NCBI GenBank assembly: GCA_000025185.1
Contig: CP001848.1
Span: forward strand, 5,400,001-5,432,000
Direction: 5' to 3'
DNA from: Pirellula staleyi DSM 6068
GTDB taxonomy: Bacteria; Planctomycetota; Planctomycetia; Pirellulales; Pirellulaceae
DNA length: 32,000 nt
How positions within the stretch are numbered: the first letter of the stretch is position 1; the number at the start of each line of letters is the position of its first letter. A program made the translations under genes and the position numbers. The notes below the pieces were generated by a model. It had not been told where the DNA came from. It did not search any database and was given only the letters and a program-made list of their open reading frames with translations. Below, piece after piece: positions 8,698-29,092 of this stretch.

Positions 8698-10179
8698 CTA
8701 CAGGAAGATGTAGCCTTCTTCGCCATGCTGGCTGAGGTCGAGACCTTGCAGTTCTTCGTCGCGACGGACACGCAGCCCCATCGTTAGGTCGAGCACTTTC
8801 AGCAGCACGAAGGTCACAATCGCCGAAACCACCCAGGTGACGAGGGTGGCGACAATCTGACCCACCAGCACCCGCGTTTCGCCATCGACCAGGCCGAGGG
8901 GCTTGCCGTTGCTGATGAGGGCGGTGTCGGCCACGTTGACCGTTGCGAACACGCCGGTCAGGATCGCGCCGAGCGTTCCACCCACGCCGTGAACCCCGAA
9001 GGCGTCGAGCGAGTCGTCGTAGCCAAAGGTGTGCTTCAGCTTGGTGCAAGCGAGGAAGCAGACAATGCCAGCGATGAAGCCCATCGCGAGGGCCGCCATC
9101 GGGCCAACAAAGCCAGCCGCTGGTGTAATGCAGACGAGTCCCGCCACTGCGCCCGAGCAAGCACCGAGCACGCTGGGCTTGCCACGCAGTACCCATTCCA
9201 TCAAGGCCCAGCTGAGCGTTCCGGCAGCAGCCGAGAAGTGCGTCACGGCAAACGCCGACGAAGTGAGGCCATCGCTGGCCAGTTCGCTACCGGCGTTGAA
9301 GCCGAACCATCCCACCCACAGCATCGCAGCGCCGAGCGTGGTGTAGGTGAGGTTGTGGGGAGGCATCGGATCACTGCCGTAGCCCAAGCGTTTGCCAATC
9401 ACCAGCGCACAAACAAGCGCCGAGACACCCGAGCTGATATGCACCACGGTGCCACCTGCAAAGTCGAGTGCGCCACCCATTAAGCCGGGCCCTGCCATCC
9501 AACCTTTGCCATCATCGTTGGGCTTGAGGAAGGCGAGCAAACCACCATCCCACACCATGTGGCATAGCGGGCAGTAGAGAATCGTGCCCCACAAAATCGA
9601 GAAGACCACCATCGTGCTGAACTTCATTCGTTCGGCAAAGGCACCGCAGATGAGGGCCGGGGTGATGATGAAAAACATCCCCTGGAAAAGCATGTGCGTC
9701 AGACGTGGAATCGCACCTTCCATCGGAGTTTCGACTTCGCCGGTTTCGGCATTGAAAGTCCGCTCGACGTTGCGCATCAGCACGTAGTCGAAGTTGCCGA
9801 TGTACGGGTTGTAGCCCTCTTCGCCGAGCGTTCCGCCGAACGAGAGCGAGTAGCCATAGAGAGCCCAAATCACCGTCATCAGCCCCATCAGGAAGATGCA
9901 TTGCATCATCACACCGAGGACATTCTTCTTACGGACCAAGCCGCTGTAGAACATCGCCAGCCCTGGTGCTGTCATAAAGAGCACGAGTGCTGCAGAAGTG
10001 AGCATCCAGGCGTTATGTCCGGCGAGCGCTGCACTCGACGCAGCACCTTCCACCGCCGTAACACGCTCCTCGATCGACGGCGGTGCCGACGATCCTTCTT
10101 GAGCCCATCCCACCGTTGCGCAGCCGAGCAGCAGCAGTGCGAGCCAACTACATTTCACCACCGATAGAGTACTAGACAT
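8698..10179 (-). CDS. amt: ammonium transporter (Amt family)
   Basis: About 493 aa and multi-TM. Amt signatures DFAGGTVVHISSG and GAILTGVFA. N-terminal signal peptide MSSTLSVVKCSWLALLLLGCATVGWAQ. ATG at 10179 with AAGGCG upstream is preferred over the TTG at 10197. Confidence 0.9.
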   Translation of the reverse strand: MSSTLSVVKCSWLALLLLGCATVGWAQEGSSAPPSIEERVTAVEGAASSAALAGHNAWMLTSAALVLFMTAPGLAMFYSGLVRKKNVLGVMMQCIFLMGLMTVIWALYGYSLSFGGTLGEEGYNPYIGNFDYVLMRNVERTFNAETGEVETPMEGAIPRLTHMLFQGMFFIITPALICGAFAERMKFSTMVVFSILWGTILYCPLCHMVWDGGLLAFLKPNDDGKGWMAGPGLMGGALDFAGGTVVHISSGVSALVCALVIGKRLGYGSDPMPPHNLTYTTLGAAMLWVGWFGFNAGSELASDGLTSSAFAVTHFSAAAGTLSWALMEWVLRGKPSVLGACSGAVAGLVCITPAAGFVGPMAALAMGFIAGIVCFLACTKLKHTFGYDDSLDAFGVHGVGGTLGAILTGVFATVNVADTALISNGKPLGLVDGETRVLVGQIVATLVTWVVSAIVTFVLLKVLDLTMGLRVRRDEELQGLDLSQHGEEGYIFL

Positions 10180-10494
10180 GAAAACGCCTTGAGCCAAAGA
10201 AGCCCGCGTCGAAACGCAATTTCTCGCGTCGAGCGCAAGCCAACAACGAACGAGACCTCGAGCCGCCTAGGTGGCCGCCTCGCCACACTCGATGTCTACT
10301 GAGCTGCGTCCGTCTGGCCATCGAAACGATACGATTGTTCGATGGTTGCCTGGTTCCAGACGAGCCAACTCTTGGGCAGATGTTGCGAAACAGACTACAA
10401 ACCACATGCCGGAAGAGCAAGTGACTCGGCGGGCTTACGGCTTTGTAATTCTGAAAAACTGGCCCAGCTTCGATTCGCTAGAGAGCTGCTGAAG

Positions 10495-11043
10495 CTAACG
10501 ATGCTGCCACGGCACATCGGCCACACTGGCGGAATAATTCGCATAGCGGGCGGCGACAAACAGATAGTCGCTCAATCGATTGAGGTAGCGAATGATCCAA
10601 GGGGAAATCTCCACCTGCTCCGCCGCCCCCAGATGCACCACCCAGCGCTCCGCCCGTCGACAAACGCCCCGGGCCACGTGCAAGGTCGCCGCCGCTTTCG
10701 TGCCACCTGGCAAAATGAAATTTCGGAGCGGCTGAAGGGGCTCTTCCAGGGCATCGATCGCCAGTTCGAGCTGCGTCACATCGGCGTCGCCCACCAAGGG
10801 CATATTTAGCTTTTGAGGCTCCGGCGTAGCTAGTTCCGCCCCCACCGAAAACAGGTCGGCTTGCACTTGTTCCAGCACATGCTCGATCAGCGGCGGCAGC
10901 GTTTCACACCGCGCAAGACCCAAAAACGCATTTAGCTCGTCGACCGTGCCGTAGGCCTCGATGCGTGCATTATCTTTGCGGACCCGAGGGCCACCAAAGA
11001 GCCCCGTTTCGCCTTCGTCACCCGTGCGGGTATAGATTTTCAT
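10495..11043 (-). CDS. cob(I)yrinic acid a,c-diamide adenosyltransferase, PduO type
   Basis: MKIYTRTGDEGETGLFGG N-terminus and the LN..LSDYLFV C-terminal helix are characteristic of PduO-type ATP:corrinoid adenosyltransferases. Internal ATG at 11043 chosen. Confidence 0.85.
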   Translation of the reverse strand: MKIYTRTGDEGETGLFGGPRVRKDNARIEAYGTVDELNAFLGLARCETLPPLIEHVLEQVQADLFSVGAELATPEPQKLNMPLVGDADVTQLELAIDALEEPLQPLRNFILPGGTKAAATLHVARGVCRRAERWVVHLGAAEQVEISPWIIRYLNRLSDYLFVAARYANYSASVADVPWQHR

Positions 11044-11234
11044 TCCACTCCACCGTGGCACATAATGTGCCTAGCCGACTCGCCTGAACCACTCGAACGT
11101 CCCGTATAATACCGGGGAGTCGAGTCCCTCTCGATGCCCCGTCCAGGGCCGCATGCTTGCGTCGTGCAACCTGGCCCACCTCATCCACTCCCTCACCACC
11201 ACACTTCCTATCCACTTTCGTGAAGGATCTGCTG

Positions 11235-12317
11235 ATGAAAAATCGCCTACTTTCCTTGGTAACCCTCCTGGTCGGCCTGACCAGCGTCCATACGTCGGTC
11301 GTGGCGCAGCCTCCCGGAGTGGCGAGCAGCGGTCCTTCGATCGAGGCCAAAACACTCGGCAATATCAAGCAGCTGACCAGCGGGTTCGTGAAAGCGGGGG
11401 AAGGCTATTTCTCCCCCGATGGCAAGCAAATCGTCTATCAAGCTCAGCCGCTCGACTACCCGTTCTATCAAATCTTCCGGCAGTCGCTCGACGGTGGCCG
11501 CCCTTTGCAAATCAGCACCGGCCGGGGTCGCACCACCTGCAGCTATTTTTCGATCGACGGAACGAAGATCCTGTTCGCTTCGAGCCACCTCGATCCGGCC
11601 ATCGACGCCACCGAAGCGGCCGAGCGTAAGCAGCAGGAAGAAGACAAGAAGTCGGGGGTTCGTCGCCGCTACAAATGGGATTTCGATCCTTACACCGAGA
11701 TGTTCGAGGCTGATCTCGACGGGAAGATTTTGAAGCAGCTGACCAATGAGAAGGGGTACGACGCGGAAGGGGCCTACTCGAAGGATGGCAAACTGATCGC
11801 CTTTTGCAGCGACCGCGATGGGGATGCCGACCTCTATGTGATGAACAGCGACGGCACCGGCGTTCGCCAACTCACCAATGCCCCTGGCTACGATGGTGGT
11901 CCGTTCATTTCGCCCGATGGAAAGTGGGTGGTGTTCCGTAGCGATCGGAAAGAAAAAGATATGCTGCAGCTGTTTGTAATCGGCATCGATGGCAAAAATG
12001 AAACTCAGCTGACCGACACCAACGGTGTGAACTGGGGGCCATATTGGCACCCGAGCGAGCCGATCATCATTTGGTCGGGGGCAGACCATAGCGACCCAAC
12101 GGCACGTCCGAACTACGACCTGTGGGCTGCTCGCTACGAAATCGCCAGCGATGGGAAGTTCAAACTCGGCACCACGCAGCGCGTCACCGACTTCGCCGGG
12201 GCAGATGTTCTGCCGGTCTTCTCCCCTGACGGAAAAAAACTGATGTGGACCAGCACCCGCAGCGACGATCATAGCAGTCAGCTTTTCCTGGCCGACTTTC
12301 TCCTCGAGGTGAAATAG
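11235..12317 (+). CDS. TolB-like WD40/PD40 beta-propeller repeat protein, secreted
   Basis: Signal peptide MKNRLLSLVTLLVGLTSVHTSVVAQ after a GAAGGA RBS. Repeated PD40 motifs: SPDGKQIVYQA, SIDGTKILFAS, SKDGKLIAFCSDRDGDADLYVMNSDG, SPDGKWVVFRSDR, SPDGKKLMWTSTR. Confidence 0.75.
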   Translation: MKNRLLSLVTLLVGLTSVHTSVVAQPPGVASSGPSIEAKTLGNIKQLTSGFVKAGEGYFSPDGKQIVYQAQPLDYPFYQIFRQSLDGGRPLQISTGRGRTTCSYFSIDGTKILFASSHLDPAIDATEAAERKQQEEDKKSGVRRRYKWDFDPYTEMFEADLDGKILKQLTNEKGYDAEGAYSKDGKLIAFCSDRDGDADLYVMNSDGTGVRQLTNAPGYDGGPFISPDGKWVVFRSDRKEKDMLQLFVIGIDGKNETQLTDTNGVNWGPYWHPSEPIIIWSGADHSDPTARPNYDLWAARYEIASDGKFKLGTTQRVTDFAGADVLPVFSPDGKKLMWTSTRSDDHSSQLFLADFLLEVK

Positions 12318-12395
12318 CCTGCGCAAGCTGCCGTAGCAGTTGGCACCCCTGCGAGTGCCTTTGATTTCGCGTGCAATTCATGGAAGAATTTGGAT

Positions 12396-12839
12396 ATGGC
12401 CAAGCATCCCATAGCACGCTCGTGTGGCGTTCTCGTCCTCCGCGATAAGTTGAGCCAGAAGAAGAAAACCGTCGCGCGCGAGTTTCTGCTAATGCGCCAC
12501 AAAGATCGCTGGGATCTTCCCAAAGGGCATGTCGACCTGGGAGAGACCGACCACGACTGTGCGATGCGCGAACTTTGGGAAGAGACCGGAATAGAGCGCG
12601 ACGATATCGCTATCGATCCCACGTTTCGCTGGGAAACTCGCTACGACGTGAAGTGGGATGGCAAGCCGGTCGAGAAGACCCTCGTCATCTTTTTGGGACT
12701 GCTCACGCGTGAAGTAAAAATCAAACCGACCGAGCATGCTGGCTTCGAGTGGTTTCCCTGGAACCCGCCGCATGCCGTTCAAAAGCAAACGATCGACGCG
12801 CTGCTGGCAGCAGCGGAAAAGCATCTCGCGGCGCAATAG
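12396..12839 (+). CDS. NUDIX hydrolase
   Basis: Nudix box GHVDLGETDHDCAMRELWEETGI (G-x5-E-x7-REUxEExGU). ATG at 12396; the track start at 12390 is TTG. Convergent with the operon below. Confidence 0.8.
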   Translation: MAKHPIARSCGVLVLRDKLSQKKKTVAREFLLMRHKDRWDLPKGHVDLGETDHDCAMRELWEETGIERDDIAIDPTFRWETRYDVKWDGKPVEKTLVIFLGLLTREVKIKPTEHAGFEWFPWNPPHAVQKQTIDALLAAAEKHLAAQ

Positions 12840-12868
12840 CCGATTGCTTTTGAAGAGTCGCTGAGAAC

Positions 12869-13699
12869 TCAGGCCGCCCCGCGACCTCCGCCCACATTGC
12901 GGCAGCGTTTTGAGCCACAGCCATAGGTGGCGCAGCTTCCAAAATAGCTCCAGCAATCGCGATGATGGCTCGTTTTGCAGGCGGTGCATTGCACGAGCGC
13001 TCCGCTCAATTCGTCGCTGCAGACAGGGCAGGCGGTTTTCACGTCGACGAGCACACGCTTCTCGGAAATGATTTCGATTCCTGAATTGCACGCACCTAGC
13101 GCGGCTTCATAGAGGTCGGCAGCGGCGTCGATAAACGCACTCACAATCTCGGCGCTGCCACTGCCACGCGGCTTGGTGATCGCCAAAAGGCCGCGCATCC
13201 AAGTCACTTCGAGATCGCGATAGCTGTACATCGAGCTCCGTTCGTGAAGTTTGTACAGCCTCACAATCTGATGCTGCACCGAAGGCGTAAGCAACTCGCG
13301 AACCGCGCGCTCGTCTTCTCCGCTGATCATAAACAGGTCGTCGAACACAAAATTACCGACCTGGATATCCTGCATCCCCATCAGCTTGCCAAGCTTTTTC
13401 ATCGCATCTTCGACTTGCAACTGACACCGAAAACGAGCTTCGGGCCACGGCAAGCGAATCACCATGTAGTCGACCTTACCGCGGCGCACGTACTCCAGTT
13501 CACCTTGGGTCGAACCGACTTGAATGGAGAGCTTGGTATTGCTGAAAAAGCCCCCGGCGTAGAGAAGCTTGCCACGATACTTGCGCACCACCTGCTGCAG
13601 GTTGGCTTGCGCTTGCTGCTGGCTCAAGGTCGCGACCACAAAAATGATAATTATGACCGCAATGAAGAGAAAAAAGCCGAAGACTGGTCCGTCGTTCAT
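12869..13699 (-). CDS. membrane-anchored RING-like zinc-finger protein (putative E3), paralogue B
   Basis: 276 aa. N-terminal TM helix FGFFLFIAVIIIIFVVATL. C-terminal CPVCSDELSGALVQCTACKTSHHRDCWSYFGSCATYGCG follows C-x2-C-x10-C-x2-C-x4-H-x2-C-x6-C-x4-C, coded about 12917-13030. The ATG overlaps the upstream stop (ATGA). Confidence 0.7.
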   Translation of the reverse strand: MNDGPVFGFFLFIAVIIIIFVVATLSQQQAQANLQQVVRKYRGKLLYAGGFFSNTKLSIQVGSTQGELEYVRRGKVDYMVIRLPWPEARFRCQLQVEDAMKKLGKLMGMQDIQVGNFVFDDLFMISGEDERAVRELLTPSVQHQIVRLYKLHERSSMYSYRDLEVTWMRGLLAITKPRGSGSAEIVSAFIDAAADLYEAALGACNSGIEIISEKRVLVDVKTACPVCSDELSGALVQCTACKTSHHRDCWSYFGSCATYGCGSKRCRNVGGGRGAA

Positions 13700-14649
13700 G
13701 GCTGACTCTCCACGGGAGGCCCGGAGTCGCTATTTTCGGTCGGTTGTTCCTTCTGGGGCGACAGCTGCGCGATGCGGGGGGCGACCGCCCGGGTTTCTCC
13801 ACAGCCAAACGTGCTGCAAGCACCGGCATATTCCCAGCAGTCGCGATGATAGGGAGTTTTGCACTTCACGCAGCTCACGATGTCGGTCTCCAAAGTTTCT
13901 CCGCACACCACGCATCTTGCGCCGTCGATCACCACCGCATCGCCGGGCGCGACGAATTCAATCCCTTCACTCGAGGTGATGAGCAGCTGATCGTACAGCC
14001 CCACGGCAATGTCGGTGAACTCGATGAGATCGGTGGGGCGGGTCGACAACCATCGCTTGCGAATCGTGAGCATGGTGCGAGCGCAATTGACTTCCGCCCA
14101 CGAACGTTCAGGGAAACGGACCAGCTGCTCGATCGCCGCGCGCACCCCGGTGGAAAGGGACGCCGTGGCATCGCTGGGAGTTCGGGCAATCGTCCGAAAC
14201 TGCTGGTCAAACTCTGGGTCACCCGAGAGGACTTCGAGCAGCGGTGGGGGCAACTCCACATGCGCATGGCTGGCATGTCGCGGAAGGACATCGAGACGCG
14301 GATAAACGCGTGGCAACGTCATGCTGATCTCGAGGACCGGCAGCGAATCGCTCGTGCCATAAGCGGCAACCGTGACACTGACCCAGCTCTCGCCATAGCG
14401 AAAGGTGGTGCGCGGGGCCGAGCCCCAGCTCGACGGCTGAAAGTTACCCCGGCGATTCTCGGCCAAGCGCGCCAGCTGCGCAGGCCAAGGGGCTTTCGAC
14501 GTCCCGACCGCCAGATAGATTGCGAGCCAGACGGCGGTGGCGATCAGGATCAAACCAGCCAGTAAGGCGCACGTCACAGCAACTTCCTTCGGACGGTTGC
14601 TCTTCGAGGAGCCCGACGCACGTTCCTCGGCCAGGGAGCAAGCTGCCAC
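13696..14649 (-). CDS. membrane-anchored RING-like zinc-finger protein (putative E3), paralogue A
   Basis: 317 aa. TM helix CALLAGLILIATAVWLAIYLAV. C-terminal CVVCGETLETDIVSCVKCKTPYHRDCWEYAGACSTFGCG has ligand spacing identical to paralogue B, coded about 13801-13914. GTG start 15 nt after the upstream stop. Confidence 0.7.
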   Translation of the reverse strand: MAACSLAEERASGSSKSNRPKEVAVTCALLAGLILIATAVWLAIYLAVGTSKAPWPAQLARLAENRRGNFQPSSWGSAPRTTFRYGESWVSVTVAAYGTSDSLPVLEISMTLPRVYPRLDVLPRHASHAHVELPPPLLEVLSGDPEFDQQFRTIARTPSDATASLSTGVRAAIEQLVRFPERSWAEVNCARTMLTIRKRWLSTRPTDLIEFTDIAVGLYDQLLITSSEGIEFVAPGDAVVIDGARCVVCGETLETDIVSCVKCKTPYHRDCWEYAGACSTFGCGETRAVAPRIAQLSPQKEQPTENSDSGPPVESQP

Positions 14650-14664
14650 CTCGCCAAACTGCCG

Positions 14665-15348
14665 TTATTCAGGACCAATGTACAGCACATCGCCATCGCC
14701 ACTGGCCGCAGGACGATTCGCGGGGCGGATCGCGCGTCGCTCGGGGAGTTTGGGAGAGGGAGTATTCTCGTCGATGAACATCACTTCGCTGCTCGCAGCA
14801 CCACCGAGGGTCGTCGGCTGACCAGCGACGCGGCTGTAGCGGACCACGTTGCTCGAGACCACTTGGGTTTGCCCCACCAGCGGGCGATTGTCGAGCGGCA
14901 AGGTGTAAGTCGTTTGCTTCTCGAGCCAGTTGCGGGCGGTGAAGTCGACAACGCGATCTTCGTTGACGTAAGCAAGTCGAATCGCGTCCCACAGACGTTC
15001 GCAAACAACATCGAGCGACAGGGCAGGGGACCAATTGAGCCCTAGATCTCCCAGGTTTACGAATCCGCTGAACGAAACATTCGGATGCACAATCGGCGTA
15101 AGCCAACGGACATCAGGCGGACTCTCGGGATAGGAAAATGGCAAACGGATTTCCACCTCGTGCAGTTCGCTGATCGCCATTTCGCTCGACATCGACGTGC
15201 CGCGCGCGAGCCCCTTGCCACGAAAGCGAAGCATGAACCGTTCGACCGGTTCTCCGGTGGCTTCCACTTCAAACACGCGGCTCTGCTCGGCCAGCTCACG
15301 AAGCTTTTTCACATCGCCCGTAATTCGGCTCGTTCGATCTTCGCTCAC
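14665..15348 (-). CDS. E2-fold (UBC-like) protein lacking the catalytic Cys, UEV-like
   Basis: 227 aa and collinear with the E2 at 18779-19546. HPN falls at residues 88-90 in both proteins. Here the sequence is IVHPNVSFSGFVNLG, with Asn98 (AAC, 15055-15057) where the paralogue has Cys98. GTG start overlaps the upstream stop (GTGA). Confidence 0.75.
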   Translation of the reverse strand: MSEDRTSRITGDVKKLRELAEQSRVFEVEATGEPVERFMLRFRGKGLARGTSMSSEMAISELHEVEIRLPFSYPESPPDVRWLTPIVHPNVSFSGFVNLGDLGLNWSPALSLDVVCERLWDAIRLAYVNEDRVVDFTARNWLEKQTTYTLPLDNRPLVGQTQVVSSNVVRYSRVAGQPTTLGGAASSEVMFIDENTPSPKLPERRAIRPANRPAASGDGDVLYIGPE

Positions 15349-16907
15349 GCATCACCTCCTTCACGCTCACTCGAGGTCGAGCGATTTTCCGTACCTGCCA
15401 CTGCATCCTTCGCACTCGGAGGCGAAGACTTACTCAGCACGTTCTTACTCGGTTTCGTAGCAGTGCTCGACTTGTCGTCCGAAATCGTTGCCACCGATTC
15501 AGTATGACCACTCGAGCCCCCGTTTGGCGAGCGGCGGACGAAAAAGGTGACAATCGCAGCCAAAAGCCCCCCACCACCGAGCAACGACAACCCGATGATG
15601 GCCTGCTTTCGGCTGAACAGCGTCGTCTCGGCTTCTCCCTCCGTTTCGGCAGGTTTCTCAGCCGCTGCTACGGTGGCAGGTGTCGTGCTGGCTTTCAGCT
15701 CCCGGAGGGCGATTTCGAGTTCCGTTTTTTTCGTTTCCAGCTGCTCCACGGTGTCGGCGAGGCTGGCGATTCGTTCCTCGCTCTCGACGCGGAGCGCTTC
15801 GAGCTTCTCGACCGTCGCCTGGTTACTCGCTTGCAGTTCGCTGATCATCACTCGCTGCGACTCGCTGATCTCGCGCAGCGATTCGGTTTGATCGTACTTG
15901 GCTTGCAGCCGCTCGACAAAACCGGGCTCGCTGCCGCGCAGCTCTCGCATCATGTCGTCGTAGAACTCGGCGCGAGCCTCGTCGCGCGATTGGCTGCGAC
16001 TTTGCTTTACCGTTTCATCGACACGCGCCGTGAGCGCTTGAGTAACGTCGATCAAATCTTTGCGAGTGACAGCGGGCGCCGTATTCGCGGGAGCTGTCTC
16101 CGCCACGGGAGGCGAGGCGATCTTCCACACCAGAATCGCCAACAGAACCAGCTGCGCAAACATACCGACCTGCCCAGCGAGCTGCTGCCAAACTGGTGGA
16201 GGGGGAGGAGGAGGCGTGGTATGCAAATGGACGTGCGAAGTTCCGGAAATCTGCTTCGATGTGCTGCTCATCAGCTGTATTTCCTCGGGGGCGGTGAGGG
16301 AAGCAACAAACTGCTCCAGCTCTTCCGCGCGGTGCCTGCTCGTCATCAAAAAAAAGCCGCCGGTCTGCTGCGTACGTGGCTTGCGACCGGTGGTCCACTG
16401 AAAGAACCCACGATCGCGCCGACAGGGATCGATCACGAGCGCCACATCGAGCGGCTTATTAAAAAAATTGTCGCAGATAAAGAGATCGAGCCCCGATAAA
16501 AACACACCCCAATCGGGATGCGTGTGATACCAGCCCACCATCTGTAGTTCGGCGGGAAATTCCTCGCGCGTCCGCGTGATCTGCTCCCACGTGTCGTGCG
16601 TGAATTTGAAACTTCCACGGGTGCTTTCGTAGTGCGCAGCGCGGAGACTATCGGTCACCATCACGAACGGCTGTTGCTGCTCGTCTTCACAAAAATAGCC
16701 GAGCATCACGCCACCCAGCTCGACCGTTTTGTCGCTCACGGCATGCAGTTCCATGTCGCGCGCCGCATCGAGGTCGACGTAGATGGGGAGCTCACCTTCG
16801 CGCAGCTTCCCCACGGCCTGCACTGTCAGTTGCCGATTCTGATCGGGACGCAAACGCCGAGCGTGCGAATCTTCTTTCAGCTCACCAAAATCGATGTCGG
16901 AGCTCAC
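15345..16907 (-). CDS. JAB/MPN+ (JAMM) metalloprotease with two TM helices flanking a coiled coil
   Basis: 520 aa. N-terminal JAB domain: E63 in TVELGG and GWYHTHPDWGVFLSGLD (H-x-H-x7-S-x2-D, about 16485-16526). A P7 run precedes TM1 (about aa 244-264). A heptad-like Glu/Leu/Gln-rich segment covers about aa 285-405. TM2 is IIGLSLLGGGGLLAAIVTFFV, followed by RR and a Ser-rich tail. GTG start overlaps the E1 stop. Confidence 0.8.
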   Translation of the reverse strand: MSSDIDFGELKEDSHARRLRPDQNRQLTVQAVGKLREGELPIYVDLDAARDMELHAVSDKTVELGGVMLGYFCEDEQQQPFVMVTDSLRAAHYESTRGSFKFTHDTWEQITRTREEFPAELQMVGWYHTHPDWGVFLSGLDLFICDNFFNKPLDVALVIDPCRRDRGFFQWTTGRKPRTQQTGGFFLMTSRHRAEELEQFVASLTAPEEIQLMSSTSKQISGTSHVHLHTTPPPPPPPVWQQLAGQVGMFAQLVLLAILVWKIASPPVAETAPANTAPAVTRKDLIDVTQALTARVDETVKQSRSQSRDEARAEFYDDMMRELRGSEPGFVERLQAKYDQTESLREISESQRVMISELQASNQATVEKLEALRVESEERIASLADTVEQLETKKTELEIALRELKASTTPATVAAAEKPAETEGEAETTLFSRKQAIIGLSLLGGGGLLAAIVTFFVRRSPNGGSSGHTESVATISDDKSSTATKPSKNVLSKSSPPSAKDAVAGTENRSTSSEREGGDA

Positions 16908-18121
16908 TGAGCAGGCTCCTTTTTCTCGCGCGACGCAGCATCGGCCGGGAGTTTCACGAGCACACGATCGCGATCGGCAGCGAGCAAAAAGAACCCTTCC
17001 TCGCCCGTTGCTTCGCGCGTGATGCGAACAATGTCGTACAGAGGAATCCCGAGCGTCTTCAGGGGCCGATCGGACCAGGGGCTCGACTCGTCAATCGCAT
17101 GCGTGCGATCGACCGACATTACTTCGCGGCATTCGCAAACGGCATCGCGAAACGTGACGAGTGGACTCGCGCGCACGATCTCGCGGACCGCTCCGCACTG
17201 GGCGCACTTCATTCCCGTGACCAAATCGCGATCGAGGTGCAACGTGAGTGGACCTTCCCCCGGCAGATGCGCGGCCGCTGCCGTAAACAGATCTTTCGCC
17301 GTCGCAGTTTCCGACGACAGCGGAAGGTCGATCGCAGTGGGATAAGTGTCGTGACTCAGGCAGTCTTCTTTGCGCTGATAGCGCGTGGTGTAGAACTGAT
17401 TGGTGAGACCGCTATAGACGTACGCTTCGCCCCCTTTGACCGGCAAACCGTGCATCACCTTGAGCGCTTCCTGCACTTCAATCGCGGCCATAATCGACGC
17501 ACTGGTCGGCGCTGTCGGCACTTTACCAGCAAGCAAATCCTCGCGCGGCAAAAGAGGGCAGCTATAGCGCAAGTTGATCAGTTTGTAGTCGTTTTCGGTC
17601 ATCCCGCATTCGTAGCAGGGGCTCTCGGGTGGCGTAAACACCTTCACCACGCCGCTGATCTCTTGAATGCCGGCGTCGATCCACGGGGTGCTCGTTTTCC
17701 AGCAGCAGCGATTGACCCACAGCCTCGCCTCGCGATTGTCGAGGCAGCCAATCGCCACGTCGATATCGCGAAAGAGCCCCAGCCCCAGTTCCGTCATCAC
17801 ATTTCCGCGAATGGGTGTGATGACCACATCGGGATTGATCTCGCTGGCCATTTCCGCAGCAACATGCGCTTTACTTTGTCCTTCGTGACGAGCACGGAAC
17901 AGCACGCTGCGTGTGAGGTTCGAGTTTTCGATCGTGTCGAGGTCGATCACAATCAGATGGCCCACCCCCACCATCACCAGGTTCTTAATCACTTCGTTAC
18001 CGAGCGCCCCAGCGCCAACCACCAGCACTCGCGAACGCTGCAGCTTCGCTTGATCCCACCAGCCAATGAGTCGCAGGCGACTATAGCGGTCGTCTTGATC
18101 GACAATCAGTGGCTCGGCCAT
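16904..18121 (-). CDS. E1-like ubiquitin-activating enzyme (ThiF/MoeB/HesA adenylation superfamily)
   Basis: 405 aa. RYSRLRLIGWWDQAKL, VLVVGAGALGNEVIKNL (GxGxxG), VIDLDTIENSNLTRSVLF, CLDNREAR, CYEC (C169/C172), RYSCPLL (C188), CAQC (C306/C309) and CEC. AGGAGAG RBS 9 nt before the ATG. Confidence 0.85.
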   Translation of the reverse strand: MAEPLIVDQDDRYSRLRLIGWWDQAKLQRSRVLVVGAGALGNEVIKNLVMVGVGHLIVIDLDTIENSNLTRSVLFRARHEGQSKAHVAAEMASEINPDVVITPIRGNVMTELGLGLFRDIDVAIGCLDNREARLWVNRCCWKTSTPWIDAGIQEISGVVKVFTPPESPCYECGMTENDYKLINLRYSCPLLPREDLLAGKVPTAPTSASIMAAIEVQEALKVMHGLPVKGGEAYVYSGLTNQFYTTRYQRKEDCLSHDTYPTAIDLPLSSETATAKDLFTAAAAHLPGEGPLTLHLDRDLVTGMKCAQCGAVREIVRASPLVTFRDAVCECREVMSVDRTHAIDESSPWSDRPLKTLGIPLYDIVRITREATGEEGFFLLAADRDRVLVKLPADAASREKKEPAQ

Positions 18122-18182
18122 CAGTGGGCTCTCCTGGAAACATAGGGGGCGTGATTAGAAATCGGTCGTAGCGCCGTGAGGA

Positions 18183-18719
18183 TCAGGCCAAACGGCCGGT
18201 CACAAAACCACAAGGCTCGATCTGCCGATCACGCCAGTGAAAGAACCCGAGTTCCTTGCGGCGCGGATCGACCACCATAGCGACATGCCACGGCTGGGGG
18301 AAAAAATTGTGGTGGATGAACTTGTCGTAGCTCGACAAAAAAATGCCGAAGTCGGGATGCGTATGATGCCAGCCGACGATGGAAAGTCCGGGATATTTCA
18401 GCTCGGCTTCGCGATGAAGCTCGGCCCATGTATCGTGCGTAAAGACAAGCGATGCTGCCCGCGACTTGGCTTCCGCAGCGGGATGAAAATGCTTGATCAC
18501 GACCAGCATCGGCTTGGTGCCATAGACGCCGCCGAGCAAGAACCCGCCACGCTCGCGACGCAAATCTTGCTCGGAAAACGCGATGATTTCATCGAGCACA
18601 TTCTGGGGCAACACAATCGCCGCGCTCGACAAATAGACCGTCCCGACCGATCGCGGAGACTGCAAATCTCCGAGAGAAAACGTGTCGGTAGTCGGTACGC
18701 TGGGCATGGGTTGTAGCAA
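18183..18719 (-). CDS. JAB/MPN+ (JAMM) metalloprotease, soluble paralogue
   Basis: 178 aa (TTG at 18719; alternative ATG at 18707). E in RRERGG and GWHHTHPDFGIFLSSYD (H-x-H-x7-S-x2-D). Strongly similar to the N-terminal domain of 15345-16907 (FTHDTW..., NFF, DP.R...GFF.W). Confidence 0.8.
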   Translation of the reverse strand: MLQPMPSVPTTDTFSLGDLQSPRSVGTVYLSSAAIVLPQNVLDEIIAFSEQDLRRERGGFLLGGVYGTKPMLVVIKHFHPAAEAKSRAASLVFTHDTWAELHREAELKYPGLSIVGWHHTHPDFGIFLSSYDKFIHHNFFPQPWHVAMVVDPRRKELGFFHWRDRQIEPCGFVTGRLA

Positions 18720-18778
18720 AACTTAAGGTCGTAGCGGATGGAAGAAAACAGGCACTCGCGCGCCCCGCGAGGCCGGGA

Positions 18779-19546
18779 CTAAACGAACTCAATCCCGTCA
18801 TCAGCTGGCGGCGACGGAGGACGCGACGACTCTGCGCGGCGCGGCGGCGGAACAGGAGGTCGCGTTGGCGCTGCGCGACGTGGCGGGAACGGCCCCGCCA
18901 CCGGCGCTGGGCCCGCTGGCTCAGCATCGTCGATGAAGAACAGTCCCTCTTCCTCGGCTGCAGGGACAATCTCGGCCTGCACGGCAGAAGAGGTCGGAGC
19001 CGCTGCGGCGGGTCGCTGCGCGGTCGATGGAGGAGGCTGATGGGTGGCAGCTTCGCGCGAGGCAACCAGATCGCGCAGCGGACGCGGATCGAGTGGCAAG
19101 ATGCCGGGACCTTGCGATTTCGACCAGAGAGCCGCTTCGCGATTGTAAGGGCTGTTGGGGTCGTAGTTCTCGTAGCGAATCATGTCCCACAGCATCGTGC
19201 AGAGCTCGTCGAGCATCAAACTTGGGACCCAGTGCTTTCCATATCCTCCCAGGCAGACAATGCCGCCAGCCGAGATATTGGGGTGAAACACCGGGGATTT
19301 CCACGAGAGTTCGGGCATCGAGCGGGGGTATGAAGCCCCCAGACGCACATGCACTTCGTGAACTGCCAGCAGACGGGGCGCTTGTGCAGGGTCGGGACGA
19401 TACGCCCCACGACCATGAAATCGCAGCACGTAATATTCCGGCGGATTGCCGGTCGCTTCAAAGCGAAAAATGCTGCTGTCAGCGGCCAGTTGTGTTAGCA
19501 AGCGATGATCGCTAGCCAGTCGACGTTGACGAGGAGATTCGCGCAC
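18779..19546 (-). CDS. E2-like ubiquitin-conjugating enzyme with catalytic Cys
   Basis: 255 aa. UBC-core signature YPRSMPELSWKSPVFHPNISAGGIVCLG (HPN then Cys98, TGC at 19253-19255). A roughly 95-aa Pro/Ala-rich tail ends DDGIEFV. GTG start with GGAGGGAG RBS. Confidence 0.85.
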   Translation of the reverse strand: MRESPRQRRLASDHRLLTQLAADSSIFRFEATGNPPEYYVLRFHGRGAYRPDPAQAPRLLAVHEVHVRLGASYPRSMPELSWKSPVFHPNISAGGIVCLGGYGKHWVPSLMLDELCTMLWDMIRYENYDPNSPYNREAALWSKSQGPGILPLDPRPLRDLVASREAATHQPPPSTAQRPAAAAPTSSAVQAEIVPAAEEEGLFFIDDAEPAGPAPVAGPFPPRRAAPTRPPVPPPRRAESSRPPSPPADDGIEFV

Positions 19547-19565
19547 CGATGTATCGTCTCCCTCC

Positions 19566-19586
19566 GCGCGAGCAAAAACCTCGCGC
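19566..19586 (-). promoter_or_regulatory. intercistronic stem-loop abutting the E2 Shine-Dalgarno
   Basis: gcgcgag-caaaaac-ctcgcgc is a perfect 7-bp stem. On the mRNA it sits immediately 5' of GGAGGGAG (19558-19565). The function is inferred. Confidence 0.3.
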
Positions 19587-19657
19587 AGAACTTCCCAGTA
19601 GAGATGTCGATGACAAGTCTGCGCCGGCCACCATGGCTGAGCGCAGCTACCGACAAC

Positions 19658-19945
19658 TTAACCCGCGACGATCTCGGGATAAACAATCAAATGATGTCCA
19701 TCCTGAACACCGGCAGCGGGAAGCGTTTGATCTTCCTGCAAACGGCGGCCACCCTCTTTATGATCGAGGCTGTAGCTCATCGGCTGACCATCAGGGCCCA
19801 TCACCGGCAGATTCATCTTGGTGATGATGTTGGGCAGAATGCGTTTGGCAGTCACGGTGTCGGCGATCACCGCCTCGACACTCTTGGCGCCAGTCTGATC
19901 GAGAAACGTAACTCGTGTACCTTTTCGCTCCGTTTGTTCACTCAC
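19658..19945 (-). CDS. ubiquitin-like (beta-grasp) small protein ending in Gly
   Basis: 95 aa. GTG start preceded by AAGGGAG. The C-terminal half GRRLQEDQTLPAAGVQDGHHLIVYPEIVAG-stop parallels ubiquitin [30 protein letters not shown]. First gene of the operon. The fold assignment is inferred, not computed. Confidence 0.7.
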   Translation of the reverse strand: MSEQTERKGTRVTFLDQTGAKSVEAVIADTVTAKRILPNIITKMNLPVMGPDGQPMSYSLDHKEGGRRLQEDQTLPAAGVQDGHHLIVYPEIVAG

Positions 19946-25477: not shown

Positions 25478-26173
25478 CTACTGATAGTCGCAATCCATGC
25501 CGAGCTGCATCTTGAGTTCTTCAAATTTTTGGTAGTACTTATCGCTCGAGCTGTGGACATGCTCGGCTTCAGTAATGAACTTCAGCGACTCGTCGCACTT
25601 CACATTGAAGCGACGCATGACCGCTTCGTAGTCGGTGAGTGGACTGCCGTAGACGATCAGCAGTTTGTGCTCGTCGAATTGCACTTCCTGCGGGATCGCT
25701 GGGTTGAGCACGGCAATGCCGGTGCATCCATCGTTCATCAGCAGGTCTTCAAAATCCCAGAGGGTGCTTTTGAGGACCGGCATGTCGATATGTTCGCGAT
25801 AGAGGTCGGTGTGACCGGCGGCATCGCGATGGTGACTCGTTTCCAGGACCACATCGACCTCGTTACCGAGGGGCTCGATGAGCTCGAGGAACAGATCGAA
25901 GAGAACTTCGCGGCTGGCCGATGCCATAAGCACTGGCACTTTGGCTCGCGACTCTTCGTCTTGGTAGTGGTCGTGGCGATAGCCCTGTTGGGGAACCACC
26001 TTCAGGTCGTAGCTTGGTCGAATGGCGTCGGTGAGCATGAACTTTCCATAGCGCTCAACACCGAGGTGGGTTTCGAGCTCTTCCTCCGAAAGATGTTCGA
26101 AGCTGCTGCTTGTGGCAGCGGCGGCGGCACCTTCGTGGAAAACACCTCGAAAAAATCGTTTCAGGAAGCCCAT
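25478..26173 (-). CDS. hypothetical protein
   Basis: 231 aa from MGFLKRFFRG, with a GAGGA RBS 6 nt upstream. Globular-looking composition. No motif I recognise. Confidence 0.55.
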   Translation of the reverse strand: MGFLKRFFRGVFHEGAAAAATSSSFEHLSEEELETHLGVERYGKFMLTDAIRPSYDLKVVPQQGYRHDHYQDEESRAKVPVLMASASREVLFDLFLELIEPLGNEVDVVLETSHHRDAAGHTDLYREHIDMPVLKSTLWDFEDLLMNDGCTGIAVLNPAIPQEVQFDEHKLLIVYGSPLTDYEAVMRRFNVKCDESLKFITEAEHVHSSSDKYYQKFEELKMQLGMDCDYQ

Positions 26174-26855
26174 CGGAGTCCTCAGTCGCTTGCTCGCGAG
26201 TGGTTTGAATTGGCAGATGTGTGACAACAAAAACTGGCTGCACACCCCAAACGTAGGTCACGGTTTTGTTAACTTCGCGGAGCGGAAAAAACCTTGCCAA
26301 ATCGCTTGTTTTTCCAGCCCGACTAATCGTTACAACCGCAACCCAGCTACCACCTGTGCATGCACCCGCCGTTTGGCTGGTCGTGCCCAAGATGCGGAAC
26401 TCTACCACCCTGTGCTGGCAATGCCAGCAAAGTGTCTACTAGCAGAGAACAATTGCGTGAACTTGCCGTCTGTTGTTCCGAGCGGCGAAAATTTGCCGCG
26501 CAAACGGCTCCGCATTCAAGCTGCGAAGAGTCGGGTCGTAGCGAGAGAATTCGTCGTGAGGTGGGCGACCCTGCCAGCAAGCCAGCGATGCGAATCCCTG
26601 TCCCAAGATTCGCGCCGACAACAGGGGAGCAGAGAGTTCAAAATCGGCCATCGGCCGACGAACCAATCGCGATCCAAGAACCGCTATACTGCCGCCGAGC
26701 GTATCGACCACCTTTCCGCCTCGAGTTGCTGCTTCCTGAACAAGCACTTCGAGAGGATCTGTGGCACCAAACGCCAGACGGCAAGCGCACCTTTGACGCG
26801 CGATCTCCACCGTTGTCTCGAGATCCCTACGCATCAGCTCCCCCGAGCGTTCGCT

Positions 26856-28493
26856 ATGAAATTTCCAGGTTTTCGACAATGGCACGGCGTCTGCCACTCG
26901 TGGCTCAGGCTACTTAGTGCAATTCTGCTGGCGATGTTCGTGGCCGGTTGCCAAACGGAAACGCCTCCCGATCAAGCTCCACCGTCGCCAGAACTGCCAA
27001 CTTCGGTGGCGGTTCCCACGGAGTCGCTCGAGACCTGGGAAGCCTGTTTTTTGCGGAACTCCGCAGCACTTCCCGCCGGGGCAAAGCTCGGAACGGGGAG
27101 CGAAGCTGCGTACTTGGGCCTCGCGCGCATCGGCTACGTGCAAACGATCGTCGAGCCGATCGAGGAAGCGGGCGAAAAATGCTTGCGGACGACATCGCGA
27201 TCGGTCAGCAGTTTTCAGCGGCTCGGACAAACGGTGCGACAAGAGGTGGTGGTGACATCGGTGGAACGTCTTTCCGGAGAAGTGATTCGGCTTGAGTCGA
27301 CGATGAATGGGGGGGATGCACCGGTCGTTACGAAAGCGAAATTTGGCGAGAACAGCGTCGCGCTAGTGACTGAAACCGCGGGCAAAAAAAGCGAGCAGTC
27401 GCTGCCGTGGTCGCCCGATTATCGAGGTCCATTTGGAGTCGAGCAGTCGCTGCAAGCCGAGCCTCTGAAAACGGGTAAAACCAGGGAAATCAGCCTGTTT
27501 TTGCCTGTGCTGAACATTGTGGGACAAGCCCGACTGGAAGCAGTGGGGCGCGAGCGGGTGGAACTGCCCGGGGGTCAGCAGGAGCTGATTCGGATCACCA
27601 GCAGCACGAAAATCGGCCCACAATCGCTCGACATGCTGATGTGGCAAAACGACGAAGGACAGGTCCTGAAAACCGAAGTGGTTGGCATTGGCCAAGTGAA
27701 CTTTCGAGCGACCCGCGAGGAAGCACTCCGCGATGCCGAGCAGGCCGAACTCGACCTCATGATCACCAGCACAGTGAAGCTGAAAAGTCCTGCGAAAATT
27801 CCGCTCAACGCCAGTAAAGCGGTCTACCTGGCCAAACTGCGTGGAGGAATCGGGAGCACAAAGTTCGAAACCGGTCTATCGCAGCAGGTCGAGAAGCTCG
27901 CCGACGATCAGCTGCGGATCACCGTAAGTCGGGTCACCCCCACAACTCCGCTACCTGAAGATTCCGCGACTAAAATCGAATTCCCCACTGACGACGATTC
28001 CCGCAGCAACTCGCTCATCCAGTCGGATGATCCTGCGGTCGTGGCGCTCGCCCAAGGGGTGGCTGCTGGGGAAACCGAACCCGCTAAAATTGCGATCGCA
28101 CTTGAGCAGCAGGTGCATAGTACAATTACGAAGAAGAACTTTTCGCAGGCGTTTGCTTCGGCAGCCGAAGTGGCGGTCAGCAAGCAGGGGGATTGCACGG
28201 AACACGCGGTCCTTTTGGCGGCGATGTGTCGTGCTCGCGGAATTCCGGCGCGCGTTGCTTTTGGACTGGTGTACTATCCCCCTGAGCAAGGATTCCTGTA
28301 TCACATGTGGAACGAGGTTTGGACTGGCGACCGCTGGGTTCCACTCGATGCCACCTTGGGACAAGGGATCGCGCCGGTCGATCGACTGAAGTTGGCGAGT
28401 TCGAGTCTCGCCGGAGCCAGCCCCTATGCGGCGATGCTCCCGGTGGTGCAAGTGTTTGGACGTTTGGAGCTGGAGGTGATTGAAGTCGAGTGA
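26856..28493 (+). CDS. transglutaminase-like domain lipoprotein
   Basis: In-frame ATG at 26856 gives MKFPGFRQWHGVCHSWLRLLSAILLAMFVAGCQTE (lipobox). The C-terminal transglutaminase-like core is QGDCTEHAVLLAAMCRARGIPARVAFG...YHMWNEVW...WVPLDAT (Cys/His/Asp). The 248-aa upstream extension in the track is Arg/Ser-rich and rejected. Confidence 0.8.
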   Translation: MKFPGFRQWHGVCHSWLRLLSAILLAMFVAGCQTETPPDQAPPSPELPTSVAVPTESLETWEACFLRNSAALPAGAKLGTGSEAAYLGLARIGYVQTIVEPIEEAGEKCLRTTSRSVSSFQRLGQTVRQEVVVTSVERLSGEVIRLESTMNGGDAPVVTKAKFGENSVALVTETAGKKSEQSLPWSPDYRGPFGVEQSLQAEPLKTGKTREISLFLPVLNIVGQARLEAVGRERVELPGGQQELIRITSSTKIGPQSLDMLMWQNDEGQVLKTEVVGIGQVNFRATREEALRDAEQAELDLMITSTVKLKSPAKIPLNASKAVYLAKLRGGIGSTKFETGLSQQVEKLADDQLRITVSRVTPTTPLPEDSATKIEFPTDDDSRSNSLIQSDDPAVVALAQGVAAGETEPAKIAIALEQQVHSTITKKNFSQAFASAAEVAVSKQGDCTEHAVLLAAMCRARGIPARVAFGLVYYPPEQGFLYHMWNEVWTGDRWVPLDATLGQGIAPVDRLKLASSSLAGASPYAAMLPVVQVFGRLELEVIEVE

Positions 28494-29092
28494 ATCAAGT
28501 TACCCGCGAACGCTATCTGCCCCCGTCCGACCTGCCACTTCCGTCGTTACAGCCCGTGCTGAGCACGCCCCGGCTGGCGCTTCGCCCATTCACTCCGGAC
28601 GACGCCGCTGAGGTCCAGCGATTGGCTGGCGACCGCGATGTCGCGGCCACAACTCGGCTGATCCCGCATCCCTATCCCGATGGACTGGCGGAAGCCTTCA
28701 TCCGGTCGCTTCCCGAGCAGTACGAGCATGGCAAAGGGGCCACCTTTGCGATCGCACTCACCGACGGGGCACTAATCGGGGCGATTTCGCTCGCCTTTCA
28801 CTGGGAAGACCAGCATGCCGAGATGGGCTACTGGGTCGGCAAGCCCTACTGGAATCGTGGCTTTTGCACCGAAGCTGCCCGGCGGATCCTCGAATTTGGC
28901 TTTGGCCCGCTGAAACTCTCGCGCGTGTTTGCCAACTACCTGGCCAACAATCCGGCCTCGGGGCGGGTGCTCGCGAAACTAGGCATGCGGCAAGAGGGTT
29001 GCCTGCGACAGCATCGGCTGAAGAACGGCCGATTCGAAGACCTCGTGCTGTGCGGCATTCTGGCCGCTGAGTTTCCACTCGCGCGGAAATAG
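28490..29092 (+). CDS. GNAT family N-acetyltransferase (RimJ/RimL-like)
   Basis: 200 aa. LRPFTPDDAAEVQRLAGDRDV..., YWVGKPYWNRGFCTEAARRILEFGF and NPASGRVLAKLGM are typical GNAT motifs. GTG start overlaps the upstream TGA by 4 nt. Confidence 0.85.
   Translation: MNQVTRERYLPPSDLPLPSLQPVLSTPRLALRPFTPDDAAEVQRLAGDRDVAATTRLIPHPYPDGLAEAFIRSLPEQYEHGKGATFAIALTDGALIGAISLAFHWEDQHAEMGYWVGKPYWNRGFCTEAARRILEFGFGPLKLSRVFANYLANNPASGRVLAKLGMRQEGCLRQHRLKNGRFEDLVLCGILAAEFPLARK

Follow-up and report, generated by a model that had tools for sequence, protein, structure and literature searches.

Can a bacterial chromosome hold every part of a RING-dependent ubiquitin-like conjugation cascade, and what would such a cascade do there? 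Complete cascades of activating enzyme (E1), conjugating enzyme (E2), RING ligase (E3) and deubiquitylating peptidase are usually treated as archaeal and eukaryotic, and research on ubiquitin-like proteins in bacteria has been centred on defence systems that lack a RING protein. We analysed 32,000 nucleotides (nt) of the planctomycete Pirellula staleyi DSM 6068 (contig CP001848.1, positions 5,400,001 to 5,432,000; this whole stretch is called the window below), in which eight adjacent genes encode a ubiquitin-like protein (Ubl), an E1, two E2-fold proteins (E2a, E2b), two JAMM metallopeptidases (JABa, JABb) and two membrane-anchored RING proteins (RINGa, RINGb). In our reading, to which we give a probability of roughly 0.6, they make up a chromosomal system of the Pirellulaceae for conjugation and deconjugation of the Ubl, which would work at the cytoplasmic face of the inner membrane in the regulation or quality control of the cell's own proteins.

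An eight-gene operon

Eight open reading frames (ORFs) of the minus strand form one co-directional cluster at 12869-19945 in the ORF list, with spacings of 111, 59, 61, -4, -4, 15 and -4 nt between the longest ORFs. The frames, their spacings and the motifs quoted from them in the original prediction, which had been made from the bare sequence, are all present as described there. From the first gene to the last, in window coordinates, they are:

Ubl (Psta_4149), 19658-19945, minus strand: 95 amino acids (aa), YukD-clade beta-grasp modifier, ending ...IVYPEIVAG-stop
E2a (Psta_4148), 18779-19546, minus strand: 255 aa, UBC-fold E2, predicted active, FHPNISAGGIVCLG, Cys98
JABa (Psta_4147), 18183-18719, minus strand: 174-178 aa, soluble JAMM/MPN+ metallopeptidase, GWHHTHPDFGIFLSSYD, motif at nt 18324-18365
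E1 (Psta_4146), 16904-18121, minus strand: 405 aa, ThiF-type adenylating enzyme, VVGAGALGNE, DLDTIENSNLTRS
JABb (Psta_4145), 15345-16907, minus strand: 520 aa, N-terminal JAMM domain, GWYHTHPDWGVFLSGLD, motif at nt 16485-16526
E2b (Psta_4144), 14665-15348, minus strand: 227 aa, UBC-fold pseudo-E2, VHPNVSFSGFVNLG, Asn98 at the Cys position
RINGa (Psta_4143), 13696-14649, minus strand: 293-317 aa, transmembrane (TM) anchor, middle domain, C4HC3 Prok-RING_1 finger
RINGb (Psta_4142), 12869-13699, minus strand: 276 aa, TM anchor, DUF3137-like middle domain, C4HC3 Prok-RING_1 finger

All eight proteins score above the curated Pfam cut-off of the expected family (YukD, UQ_con twice, JAB twice, ThiF, and Prok-RING_1 twice), and the roles that had been read from motifs are borne out by these profile searches together with the conservation of catalytic residues across about 80 loci. 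The earlier description of the set as eukaryote-like fits in part: the Ubl is of the YukD clade and has no detectable similarity to human ubiquitin (BLASTP, E=0.77). The E1 is without a separate Cys domain, and E2b is unlike true ubiquitin E2 variants (UEVs).

The starts of two genes are ambiguous. Public calls give JABa 174 aa, from an ATG four codons inside the longest ORF, and for RINGa the length called is 293 aa on two of three contigs and 317 aa on the other; a 293-aa RINGa would open almost directly with its TM segment, like RINGb. These later starts would make two of the spacings 71 and 87 nt. We infer that the eight genes lie on a single transcript. No sigma-70-like site was found, and terminator-like sites number 11, against 7.3±2.9 expected by chance.

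The modifier and its activating enzyme

For comparison between species we used the loci of the best 80 of 221 species genomes, searched by tblastn with the eight window proteins. The Ubl matches YukD at 61.4 bits (cut-off 27; 1.5e-16) and, weakly, the N-terminus of EccD. It has no sequence match in the Protein Data Bank (PDB), and support for its beta-grasp fold comes through the YukD profile only. The C-terminus is Ala-Gly, not Gly-Gly, and the end HLIVYPEIVAG is invariant in 82 of the 82 orthologous genes read. A stop codon follows the Gly directly in 55 of these, and another 26 go on for 1-16 residues that vary and show no sequence conservation, such as RA in L016. We take this pattern to be the most telling of the results: because ...VAG is invariant and the tails are not conserved, we read the Ubl as a modifier that is probably processed and activated at its C-terminus, as a fixed Gly with a disposable tail would suggest. 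The possibility that JABa is a dedicated processor of the tails was considered and rejected, since tails occur in 20 of 58 cases with JABa and in 5 of 13 without it, which is no association. In one metagenome-assembled genome (MAG; L023:2086-3314) the Ubl frame runs into E2a without a stop (...EIVAG-LGFSI...MRESPR...), and the two are either fused in nature or joined by an assembly error.

The Ubl is 75-94% identical to the window copy across species, and its median identity of 87% compares with 58% for E1, 53% for E2a, 49% for JABa, 42% for JABb, 41% for E2b and 28-32% for the RING proteins. Conservation reaches 95% or more at 60 of 90 positions, and the lysines K21, K43 and K63 hardly vary. 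We read this as probable constraint on a modifier that is recognised by many partners; eukaryotic ubiquitin systems show the same ranking.

The E1 matches ThiF at 189.3 bits (cut-off 28.1; 7.7e-56) and has a GxGxxG nucleotide-binding loop (nt 17993-18016), the Cys pairs C169xxC172, C306xxC309 and C329xC331, and a crossover loop LRYSC188PLL (nt 17549-17572). Cys169, Cys172, Cys188 and Cys254 are kept in 65/65 orthologues, His257 is also invariant, and Cys306, Cys309, Cys329 and Cys331 are kept in 64/65. Among PDB sequences the E1 aligns best with the active adenylation domains of UBA7, UBA1 and SAE2 (110-100 bits), ahead of ThiF and MoeB (about 91-87 bits), and the alignments to these eukaryotic E1s stop at residue 172, where the latter insert their Cys domain. 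The ThiF and MoeB models are matched as well, with scores that all fall well short of the NCBIfam equivalog cut-offs for ThiF, MoeB and UbaA. The conserved C-terminal domain of about 150 aa carries a four-Cys Zn-ribbon (nt 17129-17206), and the corresponding domains of 18 orthologues, searched singly against Pfam, match Zn-ribbon models only; a single-sequence AlphaFold2 (AF2) model of this domain is unusable (predicted local distance difference test, pLDDT, of 35.6).

An E2 predicted active and its Cys-less paralogue

E2a matches UQ_con at 45.2 bits (cut-off 27; 9e-12), with HPN at residues 88-90 and the catalytic residue at Cys98 (nt 19253-19285). H88, P89, N90 and C98 are kept in at least 78 of 80 orthologues (Cys98 in 79, N90 in all 80), and W-V-P-S-L of loop 7 is nearly invariant. 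The best PDB matches of E2a are eukaryotic UBC cores; for both E2a and E2b the PDB matches are weak (E 1e-8 to 3e-10) and span about 80-90 residues of the UBC core.

E2b has the UBC fold (UQ_con 44.9 bits, cut-off 27; 1.1e-11) without the catalytic Cys, 7-8 residues downstream of HPN, by which an active E2 is recognised. The site, Asn98 in P. staleyi (nt 15055-15087), is N in 26, S in 6, R in 4, H in 3, D in 3, Q in 2, K in 2, G in 1 and A in 1 of 48 orthologues and Cys in 0/48; HPN is kept in 48/48, and the orthologue alignment has no alternative conserved Cys near the catalytic site. By its sequence pattern E2b is thus classed as a conserved putative pseudo-E2, not a decayed gene. Its closest relative is E2a of the same operon (41% identity), and its best solved match is the active Ubc13, not a UEV. 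The label "UEV-like" given to it originally is apt for a UBC fold without Cys, but not for the retained HPN, which true UEVs lack, nor for its kinship, which is to its own E2a rather than to UEVs. A role for E2b as a second RING-binding E2 was rejected: the WSPAL of loop 7 looks canonical in P. staleyi, but the orthologues keep the Trp alone.

Both E2s have long Pro-rich, low-complexity tails. That of E2a bears two acidic-plus-hydrophobic motifs, one internal (nt 18926-18943) and one terminal (nt 18782-18799), and that of E2b bears VMFIDE (nt 14767-14784) and a terminal DVLYIGPE (nt 14668-14691). The terminal motif is conserved as D-[IV]-x-F-[IL]-[DEN] in 72/79 E2a proteins and as D-V-x-Y-I-G-[DP]-E in 42/47 E2b proteins, and the internal ...F-I-D... 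copy is likewise conserved in the E2 tails. These motifs resemble SUMO-interaction motifs and could be docking sites of the E2s for the Ubl or the RING middle domain.

Peptidases and RING proteins at the membrane

TM segments were called by hydropathy scan, which places one in RINGa, one in RINGb, two in JABb and none in the other five proteins of the operon. JABa and JABb are paralogues (45% identity) that match JAB at 32.4 bits (8.8e-8) and 36.1 bits (6.4e-9) respectively, with a cut-off of 22.5; JABa also matches Prok-JAB (3.9e-7). The zinc motif HxHx7SxxD is present in 61/61 JABa and 60/62 JABb orthologues, counts that refer to this motif only, the upstream catalytic Glu lying outside them. 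In JABb, TM1 (nt 16125-16181) and TM2 (nt 15543-15599, followed by a short tail) are separated by a loop of about 175 aa (residues 262-436); two TM segments are found in 60/65 orthologues, and the loop measures 115-175 aa across 60 orthologues. By topology this loop would face the periplasm, with the JAMM domain in the cytoplasm. Weak, below-threshold matches of the loop region to coiled-coil families suggest that it is largely helical, and its predicted periplasmic position hints at a role in sensing or spacing.

RINGa and RINGb match Prok-RING_1 (PF14446) at 48.4 bits (9.1e-13) and 47.5 bits (1.7e-12), with a cut-off of 29.1, and all 10 RING family members that were aligned match it. The TM segment lies at nt 14506-14562 and the finger at nt 13801-13914 in RINGa, and at nt 13628-13684 and 12917-13030 in RINGb. 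The two fingers had been called identical and terminal. They do have a common ligand spacing, C-x2-C-x10-C-x2-C-x4-H-x2-C-x6-C-x4-C (C4HC3), but their sequences differ, and tails of 34 and 15 residues follow them. Among 73 RING proteins, 65 keep the ligand pattern and 71 have one TM segment. The two window proteins are homologous over their full length (26% identity), and RINGb reaches 26.7 bits against the cut-off of 26.1 for DUF3137, a family matched by 6 of the 10 aligned members and on whose function no paper was found in the literature. An AF2 model of RINGb (pLDDT 77.7) has a long N-terminal helix (residues 4-40), an alpha/beta middle domain and a small C-terminal finger that superposes weakly on the RINGs of BIRC7 and IDOL. 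The TM segment of RINGb has no positive residue on its N-terminal flank and RKYRGK on its C-terminal flank, and because of this charge distribution the middle domain and the RING are placed in the cytoplasm. The RING family is large and fast-evolving, an exhaustive profile search yielding 532 clusters (50% identity) at E<=1e-30; the small family returned by word-index searches (4-8 relatives only) was, by the same profile search, an artefact of the search method.

Distribution, core and accessory genes

E2a has 1,379 database relatives, and the scan, with one genome per species, found E2 relatives in the 221 species genomes from which the loci were taken. The best 80 loci are almost all from Pirellulaceae or other Planctomycetota, including the isolate Anatilimnocola sp. 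NA78. The order Ubl-E2a-JABa-E1-JABb-E2b-RING, with one to three copies of RING, recurs throughout them, and about a dozen have the short form Ubl-E2a-E1-JABb-RING. JABa and E2b occur together (both in 42 loci, neither in 10, discordant in 3), and at least two RING genes are found in 18/42 loci with E2b vs 0/12 without. Gene content thus points to a five-gene core of Ubl, E2, E1, TM-JAB and TM-RING, joined by an accessory module (E2b, JABa) that probably arose by duplication.

At 9629-14984 of locus L037, on the Anatilimnocola sp. NA78 chromosome, and in nine other loci there is no RING gene within the fetched flank. These loci end after E2b, or after JABb where E2b is absent too, and in L037 a convergent PSCyt-type gene, as seen in other loci, comes after the end of the operon. 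A RING-family protein is present in the related A. aggregata (P0150), and the E3 of the RING-less loci may be encoded elsewhere in the genome. One operon lies in a MAG assigned outside the Planctomycetota (L045, 82-4782, labelled Abditibacteriales), an occurrence that suggests horizontal transfer or else a binning error; the second E2 of this operon resembles E2a but has Phe in place of the Cys.

Flanking genes: a resident or a mobile system

In 34 loci the Ubl gene is preceded, at a distance of about 275 nt and on the same strand, by a gene for a transglutaminase-like lipoprotein, and in 13 a GNAT acetyltransferase gene is upstream of Ubl (examples of such flank genes are L030:905-2587 and L032:8654-9259). 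Downstream are NUDIX in 14 loci, a Tricorn-like gene in 11 and cobalamin adenosyltransferase in 20, then Amt and GlnD. In P. staleyi the transglutaminase/GNAT pair is found at 26112-28493 (+) and 28490-29092 (+), some 6 kb off and inverted, with a DUF1501/PSCyt pair between. This neighbourhood may reflect a functional link, or simply a common gene order.

The remaining genes of the window encode Sua5, GlnD, an ammonium transporter, cobalamin adenosyltransferase, a NUDIX hydrolase and Tricorn/TolB-like, DUF1501, PSCyt and DUF1559 proteins; the neighbours of the operon are housekeeping genes. There are no mobility or defence genes within the 32-kb window, and neither a CD-NTase nor a recognisable effector among the 20 window proteins scanned against Pfam and three flank genes on L001. 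No type VII secretion or cofactor-biosynthesis genes lie near the operon, and the window has no gene for a proteasome or a Cdc48-type reader. Searches with E2a gave no match in phages and a single one in plasmids, which is distant (28% identical). This is in Crinalium epipsammum plasmid pCRI9333.03 (L084, 6254-9731), where a ThiF-type E1, two small ORFs, a UBC E2 and an MPN protein adjoin a type IV secretion coupling protein on a mobilizable plasmid, with no annotated RING protein in the stretch.

The common flanking genes suggest vertical inheritance. Taken together, the shared flanks, the housekeeping neighbours, the absence of phage matches with only one plasmid match, and the domain-level character of all matches to the PADLOC defence models favour a resident chromosomal system over a mobile defence island.

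Unrelated to the operon, a DUF1559 (SBP_bac_10) protein with an N-terminal prepilin-type methylation motif is encoded at 3291-4706 (+); the DUF1559 family is typical of planctomycete genomes.

Relation to known systems

The operon is of a kind already known, an instance of the Ubl/E1/E2/JAB/RING operons predicted in 2011, and it adds no new kind of system. The novelty that had been allowed for it does not hold: its genes are annotated ones of a 2009 reference genome (ADB18792 to ADB18799; named in the source records, and likewise in RefSeq, "EsaB/YukD family protein", "ubiquitin-conjugating enzyme E2" (twice), "ThiF family adenylyltransferase", "Mov34/MPN/PAD-1 family protein" and "RING finger protein"), and operons of this type have been described since 2011. 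Burroughs, Iyer and Aravind (Mol Biosyst 2011) are reported to have defined Prok-RING_1 and described bacterial Ubl/E1/E2/JAB/RING neighbourhoods computationally; their abstract is said to propose that YukD-like Ubls are conjugated by such systems, and reportedly mentions an E1 with a C-terminal ubiquitin-fold domain (UFD) that presents the E2. In the Pfam entry for Prok-RING_1, bacterial RING versions carry TM helices. The present operon has the same parts list and RING family, a TM segment in the RING protein, and the same Ubl/E1/E2/JAB neighbourhood. The passage of a later paper that cites the 2011 study places related operons in Planctomycetes, Actinobacteria and Acidobacteria, as the original prediction had stated for planctomycetes, and describes them as sporadic, often missing in close relatives and uncharacterized (PMC4197634); here, by contrast, there are relatives in 221 species genomes, with conserved order and flanks in the best 80. 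The same study is cited in a passage of another paper for "complete prokaryotic Ubl-conjugation" systems (PMC7159879), and Arcas et al. 2013 is cited in a further one for E2s in Planctomycetes (PMC5493775). A large survey reported no bacterial genome with a complete toolkit (PMC4327156), and Chambers et al. 2023 list RING-containing bacterial operons as uncharacterized (PMC10557695). No experimental study of a bacterial RING-containing Ubl operon was found in the literature, nor any paper using the Psta locus tags of this one.

Of the systems with experimental work behind them, the nearest is the cascade of Caldiarchaeum subterraneum (Ub/E1/E2/srfp-RING/Rpn11), which was reconstituted in vitro (PMC5654768), as the original prediction had stated. 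It comprises five roles, and the minimal Pirellulaceae form Ubl-E2-E1-JAB-RING has exactly these five genes. Its pro-ubiquitin has a tail whose removal by the JAMM peptidase Rpn11 was shown experimentally (PMC5654768), which parallels the Ubl tails in 26/82 genes here. In other respects the two systems differ. The archaeal modifier is a true ubiquitin homologue with 31% identity to the human protein (PMC11354881) and a Gly-Gly end, whereas ours belongs to the YukD clade, with an Ala-Gly end; the RING protein of the archaeal cluster has a RING-H2 for which the paper mentions no transmembrane segment (PMC5654768), against a C4HC3 finger here, in a protein that has a middle domain and is anchored by an N-terminal TM segment; the archaeal E1 has a Cys domain of about 60 aa (PMC11354881), against a loop of about 28 aa only; and a pseudo-E2, a second JAB and a membrane-bound JAB, all present here, are missing from the archaeal cluster.

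Among eukaryotic systems, the Ubc13-Mms2 pair (E2 and UEV) has its likeness here in a predicted active E2 encoded together with a Cys-less E2-fold paralogue; the difference is that E2b keeps HPN, and loop 7 of E2b is not conserved. Hrd1 and the RING-CH proteins Doa10/MARCH are membrane-tethered RINGs that face the cytosol, and the C4HC3 order is that of RING-CH and PHD fingers. Tethering, orientation and ligand order are the same in the RING proteins here, as predicted from sequence, with no evidence of common descent of the membrane anchors or middle domains.

Known bacterial systems share other parts of the set. Type II CBASS (Cap2/Cap3) and Bub have an E1-type adenylation domain and a JAB-type peptidase in common with the operon, as reflected in weak NCBIfam and PADLOC domain matches. 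We know of no RING E3, YukD-type Ubl or membrane anchor in CBASS or Bub. Cap2 is an Atg7-related E1-E2 fusion that conjugates a signalling enzyme, whereas E1 and E2 are separate genes here, and the PADLOC E1-E2 matches cover the adenylation segment only. Bub, which is more diverged, has proteins peculiar to its pathway, among them BubE (PMC11601596). Bil (BilABCD) has separate Ubl, E1, E2 and JAB proteins and E1-to-E2 thioester chemistry (PMC10557695), as proposed here; it differs in having no RING E3, in the CEHH motif of its E2 (PMC11354881) as against the UQ_con-type HPN...C, and in being sparsely distributed and defence-linked. In PADLOC there is no BilA or BilB match at the operon and nothing for the Ubl or the E2s, so that the four models of a Bil system are not matched together. 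YukD/EsaB of type VII secretion is of the same Pfam family as the Ubl, but serves in assembly of the secretion complex, not in conjugation (PMC12637312); the protein described here has an invariant terminal Gly and neighbours E1, E2, RING and JAB genes, with none for type VII secretion nearby.

Proposed function and alternatives

How might these proteins work as a conjugation system for the cell's own proteins? The biochemistry of all steps is taken from knowledge of the families. The 95-aa Ubl would be made with a free C-terminal Gly, or elsewhere as a short-tailed precursor trimmed by a JAMM peptidase. The ThiF-type E1 would adenylate this Gly and form a thioester on Cys188, and the Ubl would be transferred from there to Cys98 of E2a. 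A membrane-anchored C4HC3 RING protein would bind E2a~Ubl, its DUF3137-like middle domain would pick membrane or membrane-proximal targets, and lysines of these targets would be modified, until JABb, as a membrane hairpin, and the soluble JABa take the tag off. E2b and JABa would be an accessory module derived from the core E2 and JAB, with E2b probably regulating the building or removal of chains, not carrying the Ubl. A bolder form of this proposal, which we think improbable as it stands, is a family-wide housekeeping "bacterial ubiquitin" that is attached by the RING proteins to membrane or envelope-biogenesis proteins, built by E2a and E2b into chains on K21, K43 or K63, and edited by the JAMM enzymes. 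If true, it would be a bacterial counterpart of ubiquitylation at the endoplasmic reticulum and plasma membrane, without a proteasome.

Several observations weigh against conjugation to own proteins at the membrane. The E1 is without a separate catalytic-Cys domain, only about 28 residues lying between C172 and the resumption of the fold, and the thioester on Cys188, which these residues hold, is assumed by analogy with the Cys that Uba5 and MoeB/ThiF-type enzymes carry in the crossover loop. A UFD was not identified in the E1 C-terminal domain, for which a profile of 18 orthologues matched nothing among PDB sequences. The middle domain of RINGb gave no significant match in a structural search with the AF2 model, and no target, reader or degradation machinery is encoded near the operon. 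In 10/55 evaluable loci a RING gene is missing in cis, so the E3 may be dispensable. Pairwise identities of E1 follow those of the flanking transglutaminase-like gene modestly (Spearman 0.27; for E1 and E2a the value is 0.64). Finally, the first describers of such operons, and Chambers et al. as well, favoured roles in conflict or defence (PMC10557695).

This last view would make the operon a Bil-type anti-phage or conflict system, in which proteins of an invader, for example virion parts at the membrane, are tagged and the JAMM peptidases limit self-damage. A capacity of bacterial E1/E2/Ubl/JAB sets for defence is known from Bil and CBASS Cap2/Cap3 (PMC10557695, PMC11601596), Aravind and colleagues regard such operons as selfish or conflict systems (PMC3417536), PADLOC gives weak matches to BilC (1.8e-4) and BilD (8.7e-8), and a distant RING-less cousin resides on the mobilizable cyanobacterial plasmid. 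The PADLOC matches are, however, to the JAB and E1 domains alone, with none for the Ubl, E2a or the RING proteins; no homologue is found in phages, and a Ubl that stays at 75-94% identity fits many fixed cellular partners, not an arms race. We consider regulation or quality control of own proteins likelier than phage defence because the flanking genes on both sides are common across species and the surroundings are of a housekeeping kind, with no defence or mobile genes in 32 kb, and we hold defence to be a minority possibility, about one chance in five.

The remaining alternatives change what happens to the Ubl, or where the genes came from. The Ubl could be attached to something other than protein at the membrane, a lipid head group (as in Atg8-PE) or an envelope precursor, with the RING protein and JABb as ligase and delipidase; nearly all species have both the E3 and one peptidase anchored in the membrane, the operon encodes no protein substrate, and the large conserved loop of JABb lies between TM segments. 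To our knowledge, though, RING E3s act only in transfer to protein amino groups and the Atg8 system has no RING; as nothing in the operon resembles Atg3, Atg7 or Atg4 either, we regard such a target as quite unlikely. That the Ubl is not conjugated at all, and is a sulfur carrier like ThiS and MoaD or a YukD/EsaB-type secretion subunit, would agree with the family match, the weak EccD match and the scores of E1 with ThiF and MoeB models. It is nevertheless very improbable: E1 stays far below the equivalog cut-offs, genes for cofactor biosynthesis or type VII secretion are missing nearby, those pathways have no use for a predicted active E2, RING proteins or two JAMM enzymes of the isopeptidase type, and the invariant Gly with variable tails points to C-terminal activation. 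We give the least credence of all to a recent import from eukaryotes, or to effectors directed against the ubiquitin system of a eukaryotic host. The best solved relatives of E1 and of both E2s are indeed eukaryotic, but the E2 matches are weak and do not reach beyond the UBC core, the Ubl has no sequence kinship with ubiquitin, and the RING is of a prokaryotic family, Prok-RING_1. The proteins are anchored in the membrane instead of being secreted, and the operon is widespread in free-living Pirellulaceae.

Significance

What the present analysis adds to the operons of 2011 is the breadth and the shared gene order in Pirellulaceae, a Ubl with ubiquitin-like constraint and precursor tails, a structure of core plus accessory genes, the strict loss of Cys from E2b with HPN kept, and conserved motifs in the E2 tails. 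The operon is carried by a cultured type strain, and the comparison shows it to be stable and widespread in one bacterial family rather than sporadically imported. It thus offers a practical system in which to ask what a RING-dependent Ubl cascade does in a cell without a proteasome, and how E2 variants and multiple E3s originate.

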